From NCBI GenBank assembly GCA_016184225.1, contig JACPDA010000004.1, positions 70,800 to 134,799 on the forward strand: a stretch of 64,000 bases of DNA, in the 5' to 3' direction. Each line of letters opens with the position of its first letter. Position 1 is the first letter of the stretch. This document shows positions 3,278 to 53,533 of this stretch, one piece after another. Under the pieces are notes generated by a model that searched no databases, was not told the origin of the DNA, and worked only from the letters and a program-made list of their open reading frames with translations. The stretch comes from Candidatus Daviesbacteria bacterium. GTDB taxonomy: Bacteria; Patescibacteriota; Microgenomatia; Daviesbacterales; UBA10151. The position numbers and the translations under genes are program-made.

Positions 3278-3640
3278 CTACCGGACAAATATCACCTTAC
3301 CGATAATCTCCGACTGATCAATCAGACCGAAGTTCCTGCTGTCAGTACTATACCTTGCATTATCACCTATCAAATATACTTTATTACCCTCCACTTTCTG
3401 AATTCTTTTGACTATTTCACTTTGCACTTTGAACTTTGCACTTTGCACTATTACCATATCCCCTTTTTTTGGTTTGGAAAAAATATATGCCCAGTTAAAA
3501 CACAACACGTCCTGACCGGATCTTAGGGTTGGAAACATACTGTTACCATGAATCGTAAATCTCTGAATAGGAAAAATATTCATCACCAGACTATTTCTTT
3601 GTCTGCTCAAAAACTTCTGCAATTTTATCCACCGCTTCAA
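3278..3640 (-). CDS. sodX: S26-family signal-peptidase-like protease, probable NiSOD maturation peptidase
   Basis: GNSMFPTL...GD.V...GDN..S.DSR motif set; overlaps and follows sodN in an operon. Confidence 0.55.
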   Translation of the reverse strand: MKRWIKLQKFLSRQRNSLVMNIFPIQRFTIHGNSMFPTLRSGQDVLCFNWAYIFSKPKKGDMVIVQSAKFKVQSEIVKRIQKVEGNKVYLIGDNARYSTDSRNFGLIDQSEIIGKVIFVR

Positions 3641-4049: not shown

Positions 4050-5069
4050 TCACCCGCCGTTACCTTCTGTAGGCAATTTCATTGCTTCCAAGTACTCCTC
4101 GATATCAAAAGCTGCTTTACATCCCGCCCCGGCCGCTGTAACTGCCTGTCTATATCTATAATCTGCCAAATCACCTGCTATAAAAACCCCGGGAATTTTT
4201 GTCCGGGTTTCACCCTCAACAACTACATAACCTTTTTCATTTAGTTCCAGTTGTTCTTTTAAAAAATCCGTATTAGGCTTGTGGCCTATCGCCACAAAGA
4301 GTCCGTCAATTGGGAGTTCGCTAATCTGTCCGGTTTGAGTATTCTTTAACTTCACTCCGGTTACTTTTTCCTGTCCCAACACTTCTACTACCTCAGTATT
4401 CCAGACAAATTCCACATTTGGTTTTGTCTTCACCAACTCCGCCAAAACCGGTTGGGCTCTTAAAACATCTCTCCTGTGAATAATGATGACTTTTTGGCAG
4501 AGTTTAGCAAGATAATTCGCCTCCCTCATAGCAGTATCCCCTCCTCCCACTACTGCCACTACCTTACCTTTAAAGAAAAAGCCGTCACAAACAGCACAGG
4601 CAGATACACCTTTACCACGTAGTCTTTGTTCGGAATCCAATCCAAGCCACATGGCTGAAGCTCCGGTAGCGATAATCAAGCTGTCAGCTGTCAGTCGTCG
4701 GCTTTCAGACTGAATCACAAAAGGTTTAGCCTTTAAATCTACCGAGACAACATCCTCATTAATAAACCTGGTATTAAACCGTTCGGCTTGTTTTCGCATC
4801 TTGGCCATCAACTCCGGACCCTGGATGCCCTCTTCAAAACCCGGAAAGTCATCCACATCAGTAGTCAGCGTCAGTTGCCCGCCTGCTTCTCTACCGGCAA
4901 TAACTAGTGGATTTAAATTCCCACGGGCAGCGTAAATAGCAGCTGTTAAGCCTGCCGGACCAGAACCCACGATGATTAATTTCTCAACTTCAGCCTGAGA
5001 TCTGTTCATTATATGTATTTTAACAGATGGTTTAATCTTCCGGTTTATCAGCACCACTTCGTCTATCAC
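4050..5069 (-). CDS. trxB: thioredoxin-disulfide reductase
   Basis: FAD motif IIVGSGPAGLTAA; redox-active CAVCDG; NADPH motif VVGGGDTA; FIAGD. Confidence 0.85.
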   Translation of the reverse strand: MIDEVVLINRKIKPSVKIHIMNRSQAEVEKLIIVGSGPAGLTAAIYAARGNLNPLVIAGREAGGQLTLTTDVDDFPGFEEGIQGPELMAKMRKQAERFNTRFINEDVVSVDLKAKPFVIQSESRRLTADSLIIATGASAMWLGLDSEQRLRGKGVSACAVCDGFFFKGKVVAVVGGGDTAMREANYLAKLCQKVIIIHRRDVLRAQPVLAELVKTKPNVEFVWNTEVVEVLGQEKVTGVKLKNTQTGQISELPIDGLFVAIGHKPNTDFLKEQLELNEKGYVVVEGETRTKIPGVFIAGDLADYRYRQAVTAAGAGCKAAFDIEEYLEAMKLPTEGNGG

Positions 5070-7526: not shown

Positions 7527-8621
7527 TCATGGCTGTGCAGGAATTCCTTCCTGGATCGGATGAGTTTCGGTTTTGGTTGAACCTCCTGATTTAGTTTCAA
7601 TACTGGGAGCCTTTGAAGGTATCGGAAGTGGGCGTTTTATGGTTGTTGGCGGTTCGTCATGGTGCACTATTACAGGACACCAGTCCCACCACCCTACGCC
7701 ATCGGTAAATTCTACCGAGTAAGGAATAGAATCGGGCTCATCGCGTCTTGGGCCATCAACTTTTTTTGATTTATAAGTAAAACTATTCCCATTTTGGGTT
7801 ATTTTCCTTCTATCATTGTCGGGCTTGACTAAAGTGCTCAAAGCAACCGATTTAATTTTTTGGGAAAGTGGGTCTGCTTTGATTGTAACCGTTTTTTCAT
7901 CGCCATGATTTAGAACCAAGGGATTCGGATCGCAATACGAGAAATAATCTTTTGGTGTTTCAGTTAGGTTCCAATCCTCAATCTCGCCGCTTAAAAATTC
8001 ACCGGTAGCGGTTTCATTCATTTGTTGATCTAAAGTTACTGCACCCCGAAACCAAATCTCTCTGGTATTTTTTCCAGCAGTAAATAGAACTTGGTAAAGG
8101 GCAATTTCTTCGGTTTGTTTGCTAACATCAACAGCAAAATTTTGTACTGCCCACTCAGTTCCGCATTCATCTTGGCCACCCCACCTGCCGTCCTTATTCC
8201 AATCTGCATACAAATTTAGATAGGCGGTGCCTGTCATTTTCCCCGGATTTTTAATATGCACAAAGAAGTAGGCGCTACTTTGCTTGCAAGAAGGTCCCAC
8301 AAGCTTCACCCCATCATCATTTTCATCCTTATCCACTTGTTTGGAATCTCTTTCAACAGTTACTGCTTGCCCAAGCCAGACCTCATCGGTTTTTTTAGTA
8401 CGGGCTCCATTGGAGCTAAGAAGAGAGGGGAAATTTTGTCCTTGGCTACCGTCAGGCGCATCTCCGAAGTCAAAGTCAGCCCCAACTACCTTGGGTTGTT
8501 TATCTGTAGAAAAATTTTGCTTATTTGCTATGTTTGCAGAGATAAAATACCCGACAAAACCTAAAACAAGAAGGCCTAAAACTCCAGCAACTAGTTTTTG
8601 ATTCATAACAAACTCCGTCAT
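7527..8621 (-). CDS. hypothetical secreted/membrane-anchored protein
   Basis: N-terminal hydrophobic segment; acidic repeat-poor body; no enzymatic motifs recognised. Confidence 0.4.
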   Translation of the reverse strand: MTEFVMNQKLVAGVLGLLVLGFVGYFISANIANKQNFSTDKQPKVVGADFDFGDAPDGSQGQNFPSLLSSNGARTKKTDEVWLGQAVTVERDSKQVDKDENDDGVKLVGPSCKQSSAYFFVHIKNPGKMTGTAYLNLYADWNKDGRWGGQDECGTEWAVQNFAVDVSKQTEEIALYQVLFTAGKNTREIWFRGAVTLDQQMNETATGEFLSGEIEDWNLTETPKDYFSYCDPNPLVLNHGDEKTVTIKADPLSQKIKSVALSTLVKPDNDRRKITQNGNSFTYKSKKVDGPRRDEPDSIPYSVEFTDGVGWWDWCPVIVHHDEPPTTIKRPLPIPSKAPSIETKSGGSTKTETHPIQEGIPAQP

Positions 8622-12761: not shown

Positions 12762-13979
12762 TTATTTAAAATAAGTTTCATTGGCAAATTTGACTTGTTC
12801 AACAAACAACCTTTTAACATGGACAATACTTAACTGCTCATAAAAAAGTATTAAGGCCTTCTTAAATTCCTCTTCATCCACACTCCTGTAGGATAAAGGG
12901 TAAAGATCCCAGGCCAGCAAAATAGCGTTGGTTAACATCCTTCCTGTCCTTTTATTCCCATCAGAATAGGGCTGAAGGTAAGGAATCATAAAATGGGCAA
13001 TTAAGGCCTTCTCAAAAGGATCTTGAGTCAAATTTATTACTTTCACTATTCTCTCAAATGCCTCTTTTATTTGAAATTCATTGTCAGGCGGTCTATAAAG
13101 AGTGCCTGTTATGCCGACTGCTTGTTTTCTAATTCCAGTCGAAATAGATAAATCCTTAACTAAAATATTATGCAGTTGATTAATGACTGAAGTAGAAATT
13201 ACTTGAAAATCATTTTTATTTTTAAGTATGGTATCAAAAGCTAATTTATGATTTAAAATCATGATAGCCTCATCCTTGGTTTTACCCCTTGCTTCTTCTT
13301 GCTCCTTGATTAAACTTTCTGTTTCTAGAAGGGTATAAGTGTTGCCTTCAATTTTGGACGATTTCCAAGACAATTCAATGACAAATCTTTCCAGTTCCCT
13401 TTGTAAGATGTCTGGTTCTAAATGGCTGGTTTTTTGTTGAAAACTGAACTTCGATTTTTGCAAATCAGCCAGTTCGTTGGGTAATAAAAGATTATGCAGA
13501 AATTTAAATACACTCTCATCAAAACCTTTTTTAACATCTGCTCTTTTATCAGGATCCAGGGCAAAATACTGTTCAAGATCAAAATAGCGCAAGAGTGGAT
13601 TATCTGCAATAGATAAGTAACGAGTTGCCTTTGCGCGACCAACAATTTTTATCAGCTTAGCGCTAAGAAGAATATTCAAATCCCGGATTAATGTTGGTTT
13701 AGAAATTGGGTATAATTCTGCAACTTTTCCCTGGATTTCTTCTCTTAACAACCCTTCTGATTGGTTGATGATATTTAAAATATAACTTTGCCTTGGGGTA
13801 ATCGTATCACTCATATACATCAATCGTATCATATTGAGACGATCTGTCAAGAGGTTATAATAGACAAGGCCTGTTACAACGCTTCGCGTTATAATAACTA
13901 ATTCCAGCTCGAGAATCGTAACTCTAATATAACCACACAAGTTGCCTAAACTTGATATATTAATGACACTTGGCTCCAT
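12762..13979 (-). CDS. Fic-family protein (second paralog); real start probably an internal Met near 13814-13832
   Basis: Fic-like motif ...QPYSDGNKRTGR...; the N-terminal 50 codons of the longest ORF cover a conserved upstream element. Confidence 0.65.
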   Translation of the reverse strand: MEPSVINISSLGNLCGYIRVTILELELVIITRSVVTGLVYYNLLTDRLNMIRLMYMSDTITPRQSYILNIINQSEGLLREEIQGKVAELYPISKPTLIRDLNILLSAKLIKIVGRAKATRYLSIADNPLLRYFDLEQYFALDPDKRADVKKGFDESVFKFLHNLLLPNELADLQKSKFSFQQKTSHLEPDILQRELERFVIELSWKSSKIEGNTYTLLETESLIKEQEEARGKTKDEAIMILNHKLAFDTILKNKNDFQVISTSVINQLHNILVKDLSISTGIRKQAVGITGTLYRPPDNEFQIKEAFERIVKVINLTQDPFEKALIAHFMIPYLQPYSDGNKRTGRMLTNAILLAWDLYPLSYRSVDEEEFKKALILFYEQLSIVHVKRLFVEQVKFANETYFK

Positions 13980-14016
13980 CTGATGGAACCATTCGGAACC
14001 TATTTTCAGTTAAATA

Positions 14017-14661
14017 CTATTTCCTTAATTTCACCGTCTCATTGAATTTATCTTCGGAAATATTTCCAAATGCATGTTTTTTAACAAATAATTCATCACC
14101 AGTTTTCTTTAAAACTTTTAATCTTTCATTGTCGGGGTACAAAACCAACAACCTGTCCAAAAAGGAAGGTATTCCCAACGTTCTTCTGCCTTTAATAACT
14201 TGAGCAGCACTTTTAATCATCTTTTTATCGTTTGCTACAAGTGTTAATTGGGGATGATTTTGGCATACCAATATCTGTGCATAATCTGTCGCAGAAATGC
14301 TGTTGAGAACAATATATTTTATTTCCCCATCTTCACTTATCAAAAATCTATTTTCTTTCCGACTTCTATCCATTGATGACTCCACGTTAAGTATATGATT
14401 CAAAAAACTACCCAATTGTGTTGGGTTTATTGCTTTTGAACCCTGCATTAATTCAGAAAGAACATCATTTAGTACAAAAAAGGTAACATCAGGACATTCT
14501 TCAATAGCTTTAAATATGCTTGCCCCACAGTACTTATGCATTTCTTGGAAATAAAGTATCGTGCTAGTATCGAAAAGGAAGTTGTATTTTTTACCCTTAG
14601 ATAAAAGCAATTTGTTATTTTCCTCCATAGGGAAGGACGTTCTAAATATTAGGGTGTCCAT
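14017..14661 (-). CDS. hypothetical protein, possibly PIN-like
   Basis: ...KKYNFLFDTSTILYF... with further acidic positions; weak. Confidence 0.3.
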   Translation of the reverse strand: MDTLIFRTSFPMEENNKLLLSKGKKYNFLFDTSTILYFQEMHKYCGASIFKAIEECPDVTFFVLNDVLSELMQGSKAINPTQLGSFLNHILNVESSMDRSRKENRFLISEDGEIKYIVLNSISATDYAQILVCQNHPQLTLVANDKKMIKSAAQVIKGRRTLGIPSFLDRLLVLYPDNERLKVLKKTGDELFVKKHAFGNISEDKFNETVKLRK

Positions 14662-14711: not shown

Positions 14712-14994
14712 TTGGCTCCTCGACCTGGATTCGAACCAGGAACCTTCTCGTTACACAAATCCCCATATTTCTATGAAGCGTGGACTATCTCATCTCCTTA
14801 TCCAAATACTTTTAGAGTTAGGAGTCGGATTATTAGTCTCTGAACCTTCCCACCTCTTATGGGAGTGGCTGCGGATTACCATCTGCGAATTATTTTGCCA
14901 TTAGGCTTCCCGCAATTAACCCGATTTTCACCCTGAAGTTTCCCTCAGAGGCTGCGTTCTCACAGCGAGCCGCTCTACCGTTGAGCTATCGAGG
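14712..14994 (-). tRNA. tRNA gene interrupted by a group I intron in the anticodon loop; anticodon GUU (Asn) if splicing follows the U·G pair of P1
   Basis: 5' exon: TCCTCGA-TA-GCTCAACGGTAGAGC-G-GCTCG-CTGT. 3' exon: TAA-CGAGA-AGGTT-CCTGG-TTCGAAT-CCAGG-TCGAGGA-G-CCA. The 208-nt insert carries group I P4 (AATTGCGGGAA) and P7 (GTTCAGAGACTA) consensus elements and ends in G. Confidence 0.6.
14753..14960 (-). ncRNA. group I self-splicing intron (about 208 nt) within the tRNA anticodon loop
   Basis: GGGAAACTTCAGGG, TTAATTGCGGGAAGCC and GGTTCAGAGACTAATAATCCGACTCC closely match the Tetrahymena/Anabaena P3-P4 and P7 cores. P1 can form as CTGTG/CGCAG with the U·G at the splice site. Confidence 0.55.
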
Positions 14995-15039
14995 AATATT
15001 AAGTTGTTAAAGTAACTTCTCCCCTCCCCAACCAAAAGA

Positions 15040-15122
15040 AGTTAAAGCGGCGAGCCGCTCCCCCTGGGAGTCATTTAGACTCCCGTCCGCACTTCGTGCA
15101 GGACCCGTTGGAGCTATCGAGG
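15040..15122 (-). pseudogene. partial duplicate of the tRNA 5' exon (acceptor + D-stem) carrying a roughly 45-nt hairpin insertion in the D-loop
   Basis: AATATTCCTCGATAGCTC and GAGCGGCTCGC are shared with the real 5' exon. The insert contains the hairpin GGGAGTC-TAAAT-GACTCCC. Confidence 0.4.
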
Positions 15123-15126
15123 AATA

Positions 15127-15858
15127 TTAATGTACGTCAGCTATTTTATCACCCATCAAAGCTGAAATCCATCCCATTATTTTTCTTTGCTTATCACTAT
15201 CGCTAAACTTAATGGCAAAAACCCCATATTCATGAATATTCTTCCTAATCTTTTTGCTATCAATTTTATTCTTAGCTATATATGTTTTATGAAACTGATC
15301 CTGCGGAATTTCAGTTAATGTTGACCAATACTTCTTTGCCTTTTCTGCATCTAATCCCTCATGTATCCAGATTGCTCCTCTAAACCTAGACATTGGTACC
15401 TCGCAAAATTCTTTGAACCATTTAATCATAAATTTGATAATTTTAGGGTCTGAATTAGCAAGTCCACCATCACCGTCAGCTTTATTTCCCTCACCCGCAT
15501 AAAAAGCAATGCCTGCTAAAAACCTATCTCTTTTATTTACCTCTCCAAGTTCAATTTTAGATTTTTCAAAGATTTCTTTAGTTCTCAAAAGTCTCTTTTG
15601 CCTTTTATTTTCAGCGGCAACCTGTGAACCCTTTCTTTGACCATATATCTTATTTTCAAGAAGCCTCTTTTTTTGAACTTCTGTAAGAACAATATCCCTG
15701 CACCACCTGCTGACTGTATCTTTCGAAACAGAGATTTGTAGCATTATTTCCCCATATGAAAGACCCTTGCGGCGCAGTTCTTGCGCCTCCAATTTCTCCT
15801 CTAGTTTTCCAAAATATCCCATTAACTCCATTATCAATAACGAACTTAGATACGTCAA
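15127..15858 (-). CDS. HTH-domain protein with degenerate LAGLIDADG-like block; candidate intron-associated homing endonuclease (TTG start, or internal MELMGY...)
   Basis: N-terminal HTH LSYGEIMLQISVSKDTVSRWCRD; FLAGIAFYAGEGNKADGDGG; the stop codon abuts the duplicated tRNA 5' fragment. Confidence 0.3.
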   Translation of the reverse strand: MTYLSSLLIMELMGYFGKLEEKLEAQELRRKGLSYGEIMLQISVSKDTVSRWCRDIVLTEVQKKRLLENKIYGQRKGSQVAAENKRQKRLLRTKEIFEKSKIELGEVNKRDRFLAGIAFYAGEGNKADGDGGLANSDPKIIKFMIKWFKEFCEVPMSRFRGAIWIHEGLDAEKAKKYWSTLTEIPQDQFHKTYIAKNKIDSKKIRKNIHEYGVFAIKFSDSDKQRKIMGWISALMGDKIADVH

Positions 15859-36010: not shown

Positions 36011-36425
36011 TGGTGGAGATGTCGGCTGTGAGCCGAGTCCAAAATTGTGACTAAAAAAACTTCTACAAGCTTAGCTAATTAATTTTTATTCATTAGTTGT
36101 AACCAATTAGCAGGAAAACTAATGAATGATCAAACTTATCTTTAAGTTAATACTGATCGATCAAAATTGTATTAACAGCATCCTGACTGGGTACATACTT
36201 TAGGTTCTAGCCAGAAAAAGAATTCCTAAAATAGATGCTTTAAGCTACTGCAAATCTGGGAGCGTAAGCTGAACCAAAAAGGTCAGCTACGATACCAGCA
36301 GCCATTGCTTTGGCATCACGGACAAGTTTATTGCCGTTTGTGTTTTGAAACAATATTTAACGCTTAATGTTTCCTAAGCGGCTTGCAGTTTTTAAAGAGC
36401 AATCCTGTCGAAACTATACATCCCC
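36011..36425 (-). ncRNA. ssrA: tmRNA (ssrA), about 415 nt
   Basis: 5' end GGGGATGTATAGTTTCGACAGGATTGC (canonical GGGGCUGAUUCUGGAUUCGACGGGAUUUGCG); 3' end ...TCGG-CTCACAG-CCGA-CATCTCC-A-CCA; adjacent to smpB; open tag frame ending ...YAPRFAVA-TAA. Confidence 0.65.
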
Positions 36426-53258: not shown

Positions 53259-53377
53259 ATTGCTCCTGCACGGGATTTAACCCCGATTAAATCGGGGGTG
53301 GTCGGTCTCCGGACTTATGATAGGGTTTAGGGTATAGTGACTAGGGTATAGTAAAACATTTTTAGTTTCTACCTAAA

Positions 53378-53401
53378 CCCTAACCCCTAAACCCTGTACC
53401 C
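53378..53401 (-). repeat. CCCTAA-type telomere-like repeat (G4 motif) in the divergent promoter region; the G-rich partner repeats at 53321-53346 form an inverted pair
   Basis: CCCTAACCCCTAAACCCTGTACCC; upstream lies gatagggtttagggtatagtgactagggtatag. Confidence 0.55.
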
Positions 53402-53533
53402 TAACAATCACCGTTGCGGCACAGCCCAGGACTTGCACCTGGTTCCCAGTTATCTCTTGTCCTTCGATTTCACTCAGGACGAGATACCACAAAATTAAGA
53501 TAGCAAGATCAATTTGAATTATCAAGTACTAAA

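Follow-up and report, generated by a model that had tools for sequence, protein, structure and literature searches.

A conserved gene family linked to tRNA genes split by group I introns in Patescibacteria

We analyzed a 64,000-nucleotide (nt) stretch of contig JACPDA010000004.1 from Candidatus Daviesbacteria bacterium (hereafter the window), in which a tRNA-Asn gene is split by a small group I intron and is directly preceded by an open reading frame (ORF) for a protein with an N-terminal helix-turn-helix (HTH) and a domain resembling those of LAGLIDADG endonucleases. An earlier note on this DNA described the individual parts of the locus but missed the main point, namely that the ORF comes from a conserved family whose members are consistently found beside intron-split tRNA genes. 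This linkage is the new result. The intron is already known in kind: group I introns at position 35/36 of tRNA-Asn(GUU) in Patescibacteria were published in January 2026 (Nakagawa et al., mSystems; PMC13011429). That study demonstrated precise in vitro self-splicing of the same intron class at 35/36, with no protein needed, and found most tRNA introns to be without endonuclease genes, inferring limited mobility. The endonuclease genes that it mentions are HNH genes inside four tRNA-Asn introns only, and the flanking gene is not mentioned.

Linkage of the gene family to intron-split tRNA genes

Scanning one genome per species gave 40 loci of the subfamily to which the window ORF belongs (subfamily 1), and the window and its nearest relatives (L167-L169) brought the sample to 44. 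Within the 40, a group I intron lies right after the ORF by Rfam in 34 and by exon mapping or sequence motif in 5 more, while the last (L022) has an intronless tRNA-Asn next to the ORF; over the whole sample, the ORF adjoins an intron-split tRNA-Asn in 43 of 44 loci. The two genes are tightly packed, with the ORF stop 2 to 8 nt from the tRNA 5′ end at most loci. At several the frame even enters the tRNA, extending up to 21 nt into the 5′ exon in L020, L023, L026 (ORF end about 4690-4711), and L029 (2637-2664), where it stops at the TAG of the D-arm GGTAGAGC; in a co-transcript, processing by ribonuclease P would thereby cut away the stop codon.

As a comparison class, we scanned metagenomes with the tRNA-Asn 5′-exon pattern. 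None of the 120 tRNA-Asn-type loci obtained has a homologue of the ORF, so the ORF-bearing arrangement is a minority state, and “empty” rpoD-tRNA-Asn junctions without it are common. Among ORF-less loci with enough upstream sequence, the tRNA gene is uninterrupted in 72 and interrupted in only 15 (15/87). The resulting Fisher probabilities (1.4e-20 for the whole sample and 5e-9 for rpoD-syntenic loci) are uncorrected for shared ancestry, and the loci are not phylogenetically independent.

Shared ancestry could in principle account for the whole pattern if the ORF were a mere syntenic neighbor and the order dnaG-rpoD-ORF-tRNA-Asn, seen in 23 of 41 loci, had come down from the ancestor of a single clade of the candidate phyla radiation (CPR) that also had the intron; that the ORF tracks RpoD fits this explanation, as do Fisher tests that leave ancestry uncorrected. 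We nevertheless regard it as highly improbable. The ORF-split tRNA pair is kept in 18 loci with other flanks and in an inverted arrangement (L039), and repeated replacement of the intron has always left an intron in place. Relatives in a viral database sit in tRNA arrays. Most tellingly, a second subfamily shows linkage to another split tRNA, which brings the syntenic explanation close to refuted.

For this second subfamily (about 33% identical to the first, 83 clusters), nine proteins were examined, and the gene of each adjoins an intron-split initiator-like tRNA(CAU), from which it is divergently transcribed at a distance of about 80 to 100 nt, with the tRNA promoter in between. Both subfamilies meet in L040, where a second paralogue, again about 33% identical, lies beside a second split tRNA. 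The L040 copy (1350-2039) has a single in-frame TAG after the HTH and may be an early pseudogene or contain a sequencing error.

Further full-length relatives, 27 to 34% identical, lie inside tRNA gene arrays on 8 of 8 IMG/VR contigs (L176-L183), whose phage nature is assumed from the viral database. They sit among intronless tRNA genes, one of them directly before an intron-split tRNA-Met. Contig L182 contains two group I introns (2419-2692 and 3437-3624) within about 1.2 kb of tRNA array, one in tRNA-Met(CAU) directly after a short family member (169 amino acids [aa], HTH-less). A profile search at E ≤ 1e-30 returned 809 representatives at 50% clustering; of the 150 best, only 16 fall in the two subfamilies studied here. 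Members P0273, P0285, P0300, P0312, and P0322 (504 to 576 aa) have double the usual length, and the profile aligns to each in two or three segments; by analogy with double-motif LAGLIDADG enzymes, they may be tandem fusions.

Two side observations concern the sampled loci. In L150, a 569-nt insert (1527-2096) in the tRNA-Asn gene downstream of rpoD holds an ORF with an HNH motif (1562-1909) and resembles the HNH-bearing introns of the 2026 survey (PMC13011429). L004, L006, L008, and many other loci bear the title “uncultured Gammaproteobacteria bacterium (binchicken...)”; these metagenome-assembled genomes look mislabelled, and loci of this type have RpoD 88 to 93% identical to that of the Daviesbacteria window as well as CPR-type split tRNAs.

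The protein and its possible role

The ORF product is 100% identical to a Candidatus Daviesbacteria hypothetical protein. The 243-codon frame reported earlier is present (15127-15858), but homologues all start at the ATG at 15822, which gives 231 aa, and the TTG at 15858 belongs to the −35 hexamer of a promoter-like site. The N-terminal HTH was borne out by a weak Pfam match (transposase/invertase type, E = 0.004), the sole match to any sequence library, and is supported by the predicted fold. The degenerate LAGLIDADG-like block fared less simply. It is undetectable by sequence, with no match in Pfam (LAGLIDADG_1/2/3), NCBIfam, or PHROGs, none in PDB sequences by phmmer or hmmsearch, and none to I-CreI by hhalign, and a Foldseek comparison with PDB was uninformative; the predicted structure, however, is LAGLIDADG-like and supports an alpha/beta fold of that class for the domain. 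The motif F-x-x-G-x-x-x-Y-x-x-[E/D]-G-x-K closes the first helix of the domain, which ends at residue 111 in the model, and in all 47 aligned sequences in which the motif is covered, the residue at this helix end is acidic, either E or D (40 from subfamily 1 and 7 from subfamily 2; L037, cut off before the motif, was left out). The ratio of nonsynonymous to synonymous substitution rates (dN/dS) is 0.05 to 0.2, and by this measure the ORF is under purifying selection.

In the transcription factor WhiA, two degenerate LAGLIDADG domains lack catalytic acidic residues and the HTH is C-terminal, and inactive maturases likewise have not retained the catalytic acidic residue. We rejected a WhiA-like architecture for the ORF product, which has a single domain, an N-terminal HTH, and a conserved E/D. 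In the same phylum, rRNA introns of CPR bacteria encode I-ShaI and similar single-domain LAGLIDADG homing endonucleases, which are recognized by Pfam LAGLIDADG_1/2/3 and show about 42% identity to I-CeuI (PMC11270868). The window ORF shares with them a single LAGLIDADG domain and an association with group I introns in structural RNA genes, but it differs in that the family is encoded outside the intron, has an N-terminal HTH, and gives no Pfam LAGLIDADG match.

We lean towards the view that the ORF protein is a free-standing homing endonuclease directed at tRNA genes, with genetic coupling to the ORF-less intron, either through collaborative (trans) homing or through intronless homing. The protein would be a site-specific DNA endonuclease with its target in or beside tRNA genes; we infer this activity, its target, and any part that it played in the scar described below. 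With the nuclease gene only about 40 bp from the intron insertion site, gene and intron would be inherited and converted together, whether by collaborative homing or by intronless homing with the intron co-converted. The palindromic anticodon arm, at the center of which the intron lies, would suit a single-domain LAGLIDADG enzyme acting as a homodimer. At the level of sequence, homing would be in keeping with an acidic motif residue that is E or D throughout, unlike in degenerate LAGLIDADG proteins such as WhiA. It also draws support from a linkage that survives change of context and from the independent second case in subfamily 2, and the relatives in tRNA arrays occupy the niche of the phage endonuclease SegB. 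Also on its side are the near-universal linkage in subfamily 1, the common “empty” rpoD-tRNA-Asn sites, the turnover of intron types beside an ORF that tracks RpoD, the pseudo-exon scars in 4 of 44 loci (with a fragment in L019 unlike its resident tRNA), and the precedent of collaborative homing.

Established systems resemble this arrangement in part. Collaborative homing is known from F-CphI, beside the ORF-less psbA intron of cyanophage S-PM2, and from T4 mobE with I-TevIII (PMC3984707; PMC2790892; PMC6083498). In these systems a free-standing endonuclease gene adjoins a gene with an ORF-less (or defunct-ORF) group I intron, and an endonuclease-like gene adjoins an intron-split gene in the same way in 43/44 subfamily-1 and 9/9 subfamily-2 cases. 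The F-CphI and mobE cases involve phage protein-coding genes, Endo VII-like or HNH enzymes, and cleavage mapped at the intron insertion site, whereas the window presents a bacterial chromosome, a tRNA gene, and a predicted LAGLIDADG-like enzyme, and L022 pairs the ORF with an intronless tRNA. T4 SegB is a proven free-standing homing endonuclease in a phage tRNA gene cluster (PMC2330249); the viral-database relatives are likewise free-standing genes embedded among tRNA genes, although SegB has a GIY-YIG fold and involves no intron.

Several results weigh against homing. The ORF and RpoD diverge in step (Mantel rho = 0.64, p = 0.0005), no pair was found in which the ORF is more similar than RpoD, and blastn revealed no DNA mosaic at the ORF; an identical-codon test gave a small ORF excess that is explicable by codon bias, and we draw no claim from it. 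The introns, in contrast, are of three types by P4/P6/P7 sequence, and type is uncorrelated with RpoD (Mantel rho = 0.09) or with the ORF (rho = −0.02). L011 and L012 are 91% identical in RpoD and 83% in the ORF but only 50% in the intron, whereas L011 and L026 are 67% and 57% identical in RpoD and ORF but 84% in the intron; the window and L169 agree at 72 of 72 comparable exon bases and at 80% of ORF DNA but have introns of different types (66% identical). Introns have therefore been exchanged at the site while the ORF stayed. Joint lateral spread of ORF and intron, as in collaborative homing, was not found, as the ORF tracks RpoD and intron type tracks neither. Intron type covaries neither with the ORF nor, by eye, with the adjacent exon stems, which is not what simple co-conversion predicts. 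No decayed copies occur among the 44 subfamily-1 loci, all of which are intact, and an apparently vertical inheritance under strong purifying selection without decay is more like the history of a domesticated host gene than that of a selfish element. The introns can do without the ORF, which is missing from seven evaluable intron-bearing loci, and homologous introns self-splice without protein (PMC13011429). The ORF of L022, next to its intronless tRNA-Asn, is intact with all near-invariant residues; the protein is therefore not lethal to every intronless allele, which argues against strict immunity or obligatory protection by the intron. Finally, the divergent orientation of subfamily 2 relative to the tRNA is a layout typical of regulators.

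It is possible, if in our judgment doubtful, that the ORF encodes instead a domesticated, LAGLIDADG-derived protein that does not cut, either a WhiA-like regulator of tRNA genes or a trans-acting maturase or chaperone for the neighboring intron, in which case the linkage to split tRNAs would reflect an expression or splicing function and not mobility. Such a protein would sit well with the HTH, with an ORF that tracks host RpoD at low dN/dS, with the intactness of every subfamily-1 copy (44/44), and with the tRNA promoter lying between subfamily 2 and its divergent tRNA; WhiA itself is a precedent for LAGLIDADG plus HTH as a regulator. The rule that the ORF implies an intron while an intron does not imply the ORF fits a helper that is useless without an intron, and L022 would then be a lineage that has just lost its intron. 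Less easily accommodated are the acidic residue, kept everywhere unlike in WhiA and inactive maturases, and the location of the gene, since the maturases known to us are intron-encoded. One ORF lineage is found with three intron types, which is awkward for a co-evolved RNA partner, and the viral-database relatives sit among intronless tRNAs, where a maturase has no substrate. The self-splicing of homologous introns in vitro (PMC13011429) also speaks against a need for such a helper.

The split tRNA-Asn gene and the duplicate of its 5′ exon

All features of the split-tRNA locus (tRNA, intron, duplicate, and ORF) are on the minus strand (Table 1). A search with Rfam RF00028, a check that the earlier note had named, matched 14761-15045 with 82 bits (E = 2.5e-19; gathering score, 50), aligning AAUUGCGGGAA at P4 and GUUCAGAGACUA at P7, and so confirmed a group I intron with P4 and P7 cores. 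The 5′ boundary of this match is an artefact, in that an upstream hairpin was modelled as P1 and the 5′ exon treated as an insertion. By eye, P1 pairs exon GCUGU with intron GCAGC, so that the last exon U stands opposite G at the splice site as had been proposed, and the intron ends in ...UUGUG. The elements CTGT...GCAGC are kept in all homologues, and compensatory double changes occur in 23 of the 28 pairs that RNAalifold predicts for 22 aligned homologous introns, indicating that the introns are constrained ribozymes. Since homologues splice in vitro (PMC13011429), the window intron is probably self-splicing as well. The earlier description of it as small and ORF-less holds, and the coordinates give exactly the lengths first reported (34 nt + 208 nt + 41 nt).

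Table 1. Coordinates of features at the split tRNA-Asn locus of the window
Feature	Position	Strand	Description
tRNA-Asn 3′ exon	14713..14753	−	41 nt, first base U36, CCA encoded at end; TAACGAG...TCGAGGAGCCA; exact string match and ARAGORN on joined exons
Group I intron	14754..14961	−	208 nt, ORF-less, anticodon position 35/36; P4 AATTGCGGGAA, P7 GTTCAGAGACTA, terminal G
tRNA-Asn 5′ exon	14962..14995	−	34 nt, TCCTCGATAGCTCAACGGTAGAGCGGCTCGCTGT, ends ...GCUGU, last U pairs with G in P1
Motif TTTAACAACTTAATAT	14996..15011	−	Directly 5′ of functional tRNA; sequence comparison
Spacer hairpin AACTTCT...AGAAGTT	15014..15043	−	Mis-assigned as P1 by Rfam model
Terminator-like hairpin GGAGCGG-CTCG-CCGCTTT with T-rich tail	15044..15061	−	Terminator scan; partly from pseudo-exon 11-mer (15050-15060)
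Insert in pseudo-exon	15061..15104	−	44 nt, two hairpins (15104-15085 and 15084-15066)
Pseudo 5′ exon part 1	15105..15130	−	TTAATAT + TCCTCGATAGCTC[C]AACGG; copy of tRNA nt −7 to +18, one extra C
231-aa protein gene	15127..15822	−	N-terminal HTH, long helix, single LAGLIDADG-like domain, conserved motif FLAGIAFYAGEGNK (E111, G112, K114)
Promoter-like site TTGACG-17-GATAAT	15830..15858	−	In front of ORF; consensus scan, 10/12 matches; predicted

ARAGORN on the joined exons returns a canonical tRNA-Asn(gtt), and the exons match intronless tRNA-Asn genes (L123), in agreement with the anticodon GUU and the 35/36 insertion site proposed before. The default ARAGORN scan does not call the split gene, only one tRNA-Asn(GUU) gene was found within the window, and L169 has an identical 5′ exon. 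With introns allowed (-i), ARAGORN calls Thr(tgt) i(33,208), and a GU dinucleotide repeated at both boundaries makes cuts at 33/34 and 35/36 both formally possible, but a tRNA-Thr(UGU) gene is next to inconceivable and was dropped: the acceptor stem, D arm, T arm, and G73 agree with intronless metagenomic tRNA-Asn(GUU) genes such as L123, the U·G wobble of P1 falls at U35, and the 33/34 call is a documented miscall, 35/36 having been verified by sequencing the spliced product of homologues (PMC13011429). The published introns thus share with that of the window the phylum, the tRNA, the insertion site, the small ORF-less form, and the tendency of ARAGORN to miss the gene or to miscall it Thr(UGU) at 33/34. 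Unlike the published account, the window and its relatives have a conserved endonuclease-like gene just outside the tRNA and intron types that are shuffled among relatives.

Between the ORF and the functional tRNA lies the partial duplicate of the 5′ exon that had been noticed earlier, in the form of an exact 20-nt repeat (14983-15002 = 15111-15130, tRNA positions −7 to +13) and an exact 11-nt repeat (14965-14975 = 15050-15060, tRNA nt 21 to 31). Their spacings of 128 and 85 nt correspond to a net insertion of 43 nt between the two segments. An insertion is therefore present as first described, though not as one 45-nt hairpin: it folds into two adjacent hairpins (−50.7 kcal/mol, z = −3.9), and its sequence is unique within the window. 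The ORF stop TAA (15129-15127) falls within the first part of the pseudo-exon, and homology of the duplicate stops at the 5′ strand of the anticodon stem. The duplicate is absent from the nearest relatives, L167-L169 (80 to 82% ORF identity), and the scar is therefore recent and lineage specific. A simple tandem duplication was rejected because the spacer that follows the 11-mer resembles the start of the intron no better than shuffles do. We also rejected an attachment site duplication by an integrative element, as the duplicated part is the 5′ 31 nt of the tRNA (the wrong end) and only 128 nt away; no integrase was found among the neighboring window ORFs scanned.

Pseudo-exon scars occur at the same junction in 4 of 44 loci (the window, L019, L033, and L038). 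The fragment in L019, TCCGCGATAGC, differs from the resident tRNA (TCCCCTG...), and L038 (4706-4823) has a pseudo-tRNA with pieces of both exons (TCCCCGATAGCT, AGCGAAG, and GGTTCGAAT), extra hairpins, and no intron, which may be a decayed intronless copy. In all four, the functional tRNA is preceded by a motif of the (T)TGACAAYTTAATAT type, which precedes tRNA-Asn in L019, L033, and L038 and also in the ORF-less L053; ORF-less rpoD-tRNA-Asn junctions of the L053 type carry TTGACAATTTAATAT. The position of (T)TGACAAYTTAATAT is too near the tRNA for an ordinary −35/−10 pair, and it occurs in spacer-bearing and ORF-less loci. On the simplest reading, an older stump abutting the ORF had a complete tRNA-Asn gene, native upstream region included, joined behind it, or else the ORF and stump were joined in front of such a gene. 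The decayed copy would then be the scar of a recent recombination or repair event that placed the complete gene, together with its upstream motif and an intron of another type, behind the older remnant, part of which now forms the terminator-like hairpin after the ORF.

The earlier note had taken the duplicate for the footprint of mobility mediated by a homing endonuclease, a claim that goes beyond the evidence; slippage or illegitimate recombination would give the same picture as this recent, lineage-specific scar. An origin unrelated to the endonuclease, by slippage, tandem duplication, or illegitimate recombination of about 128 nt followed by the 44-nt insert, with part retained as the ORF terminator, seems to us unlikely but deserves serious consideration. 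Identical direct repeats 128 nt apart, a terminator-like hairpin built from the 11-mer, and the youth of an event absent from relatives 80 to 82% identical are what it would produce, and the end points of the pseudo-exon differ between the window, L019, L033, and L038, so there is no common break site. Against it, the spacer rules out a simple tandem duplication, the functional copy has the upstream motif typical of ORF-less tRNA-Asn loci (L053), the L019 fragment is unlike its resident tRNA and implies foreign DNA, and scars recur at the same junction in 4/44 loci.

Other features of the window and the retention of tRNA introns

Downstream of the tRNA, the minus strand at 12762-14661 contains a 214-aa ORF of no recognized family and the gene of a Fic/DOC-domain protein; this flank is variable, its genes changing from one relative to the next. 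Elsewhere on the minus strand of the window are a transfer-messenger RNA (36011-36425; RF00023, 100.5 bits), which is long (415 nt) with large inserts relative to the model, and a cobalamin riboswitch (53283-53504; RF00174, 54.9 bits), here in a CPR genome. In L020, a LOOT RNA (8207-8317; RF03000, 77.8 bits) lies a few kilobases downstream of the ORF-tRNA unit.

Because the tRNA introns of Patescibacteria mostly lack endonuclease genes, the 2026 survey (PMC13011429) arrived at limited mobility and a puzzling retention of these introns. We find that two different split tRNA genes have an endonuclease-like gene immediately outside them and that intron types have been swapped between closely related loci. 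Should the protein prove to be an active nuclease, the conclusion of limited mobility needs revising, and the retention puzzle becomes testable, with the intron as either protection or a co-converted passenger. The family represents a compact new LAGLIDADG-like scaffold with an HTH, with about 800 strong representatives at 50% clustering and a C-terminal domain that has no Pfam model. We suggest, tentatively and against the odds as we judge them, that Patescibacteria and tRNA-array phages carry a large unrecognized family of free-standing HTH-LAGLIDADG nucleases targeting tRNA genes. Such a family, if real, would explain why tRNA introns are retained in genome-reduced bacteria.

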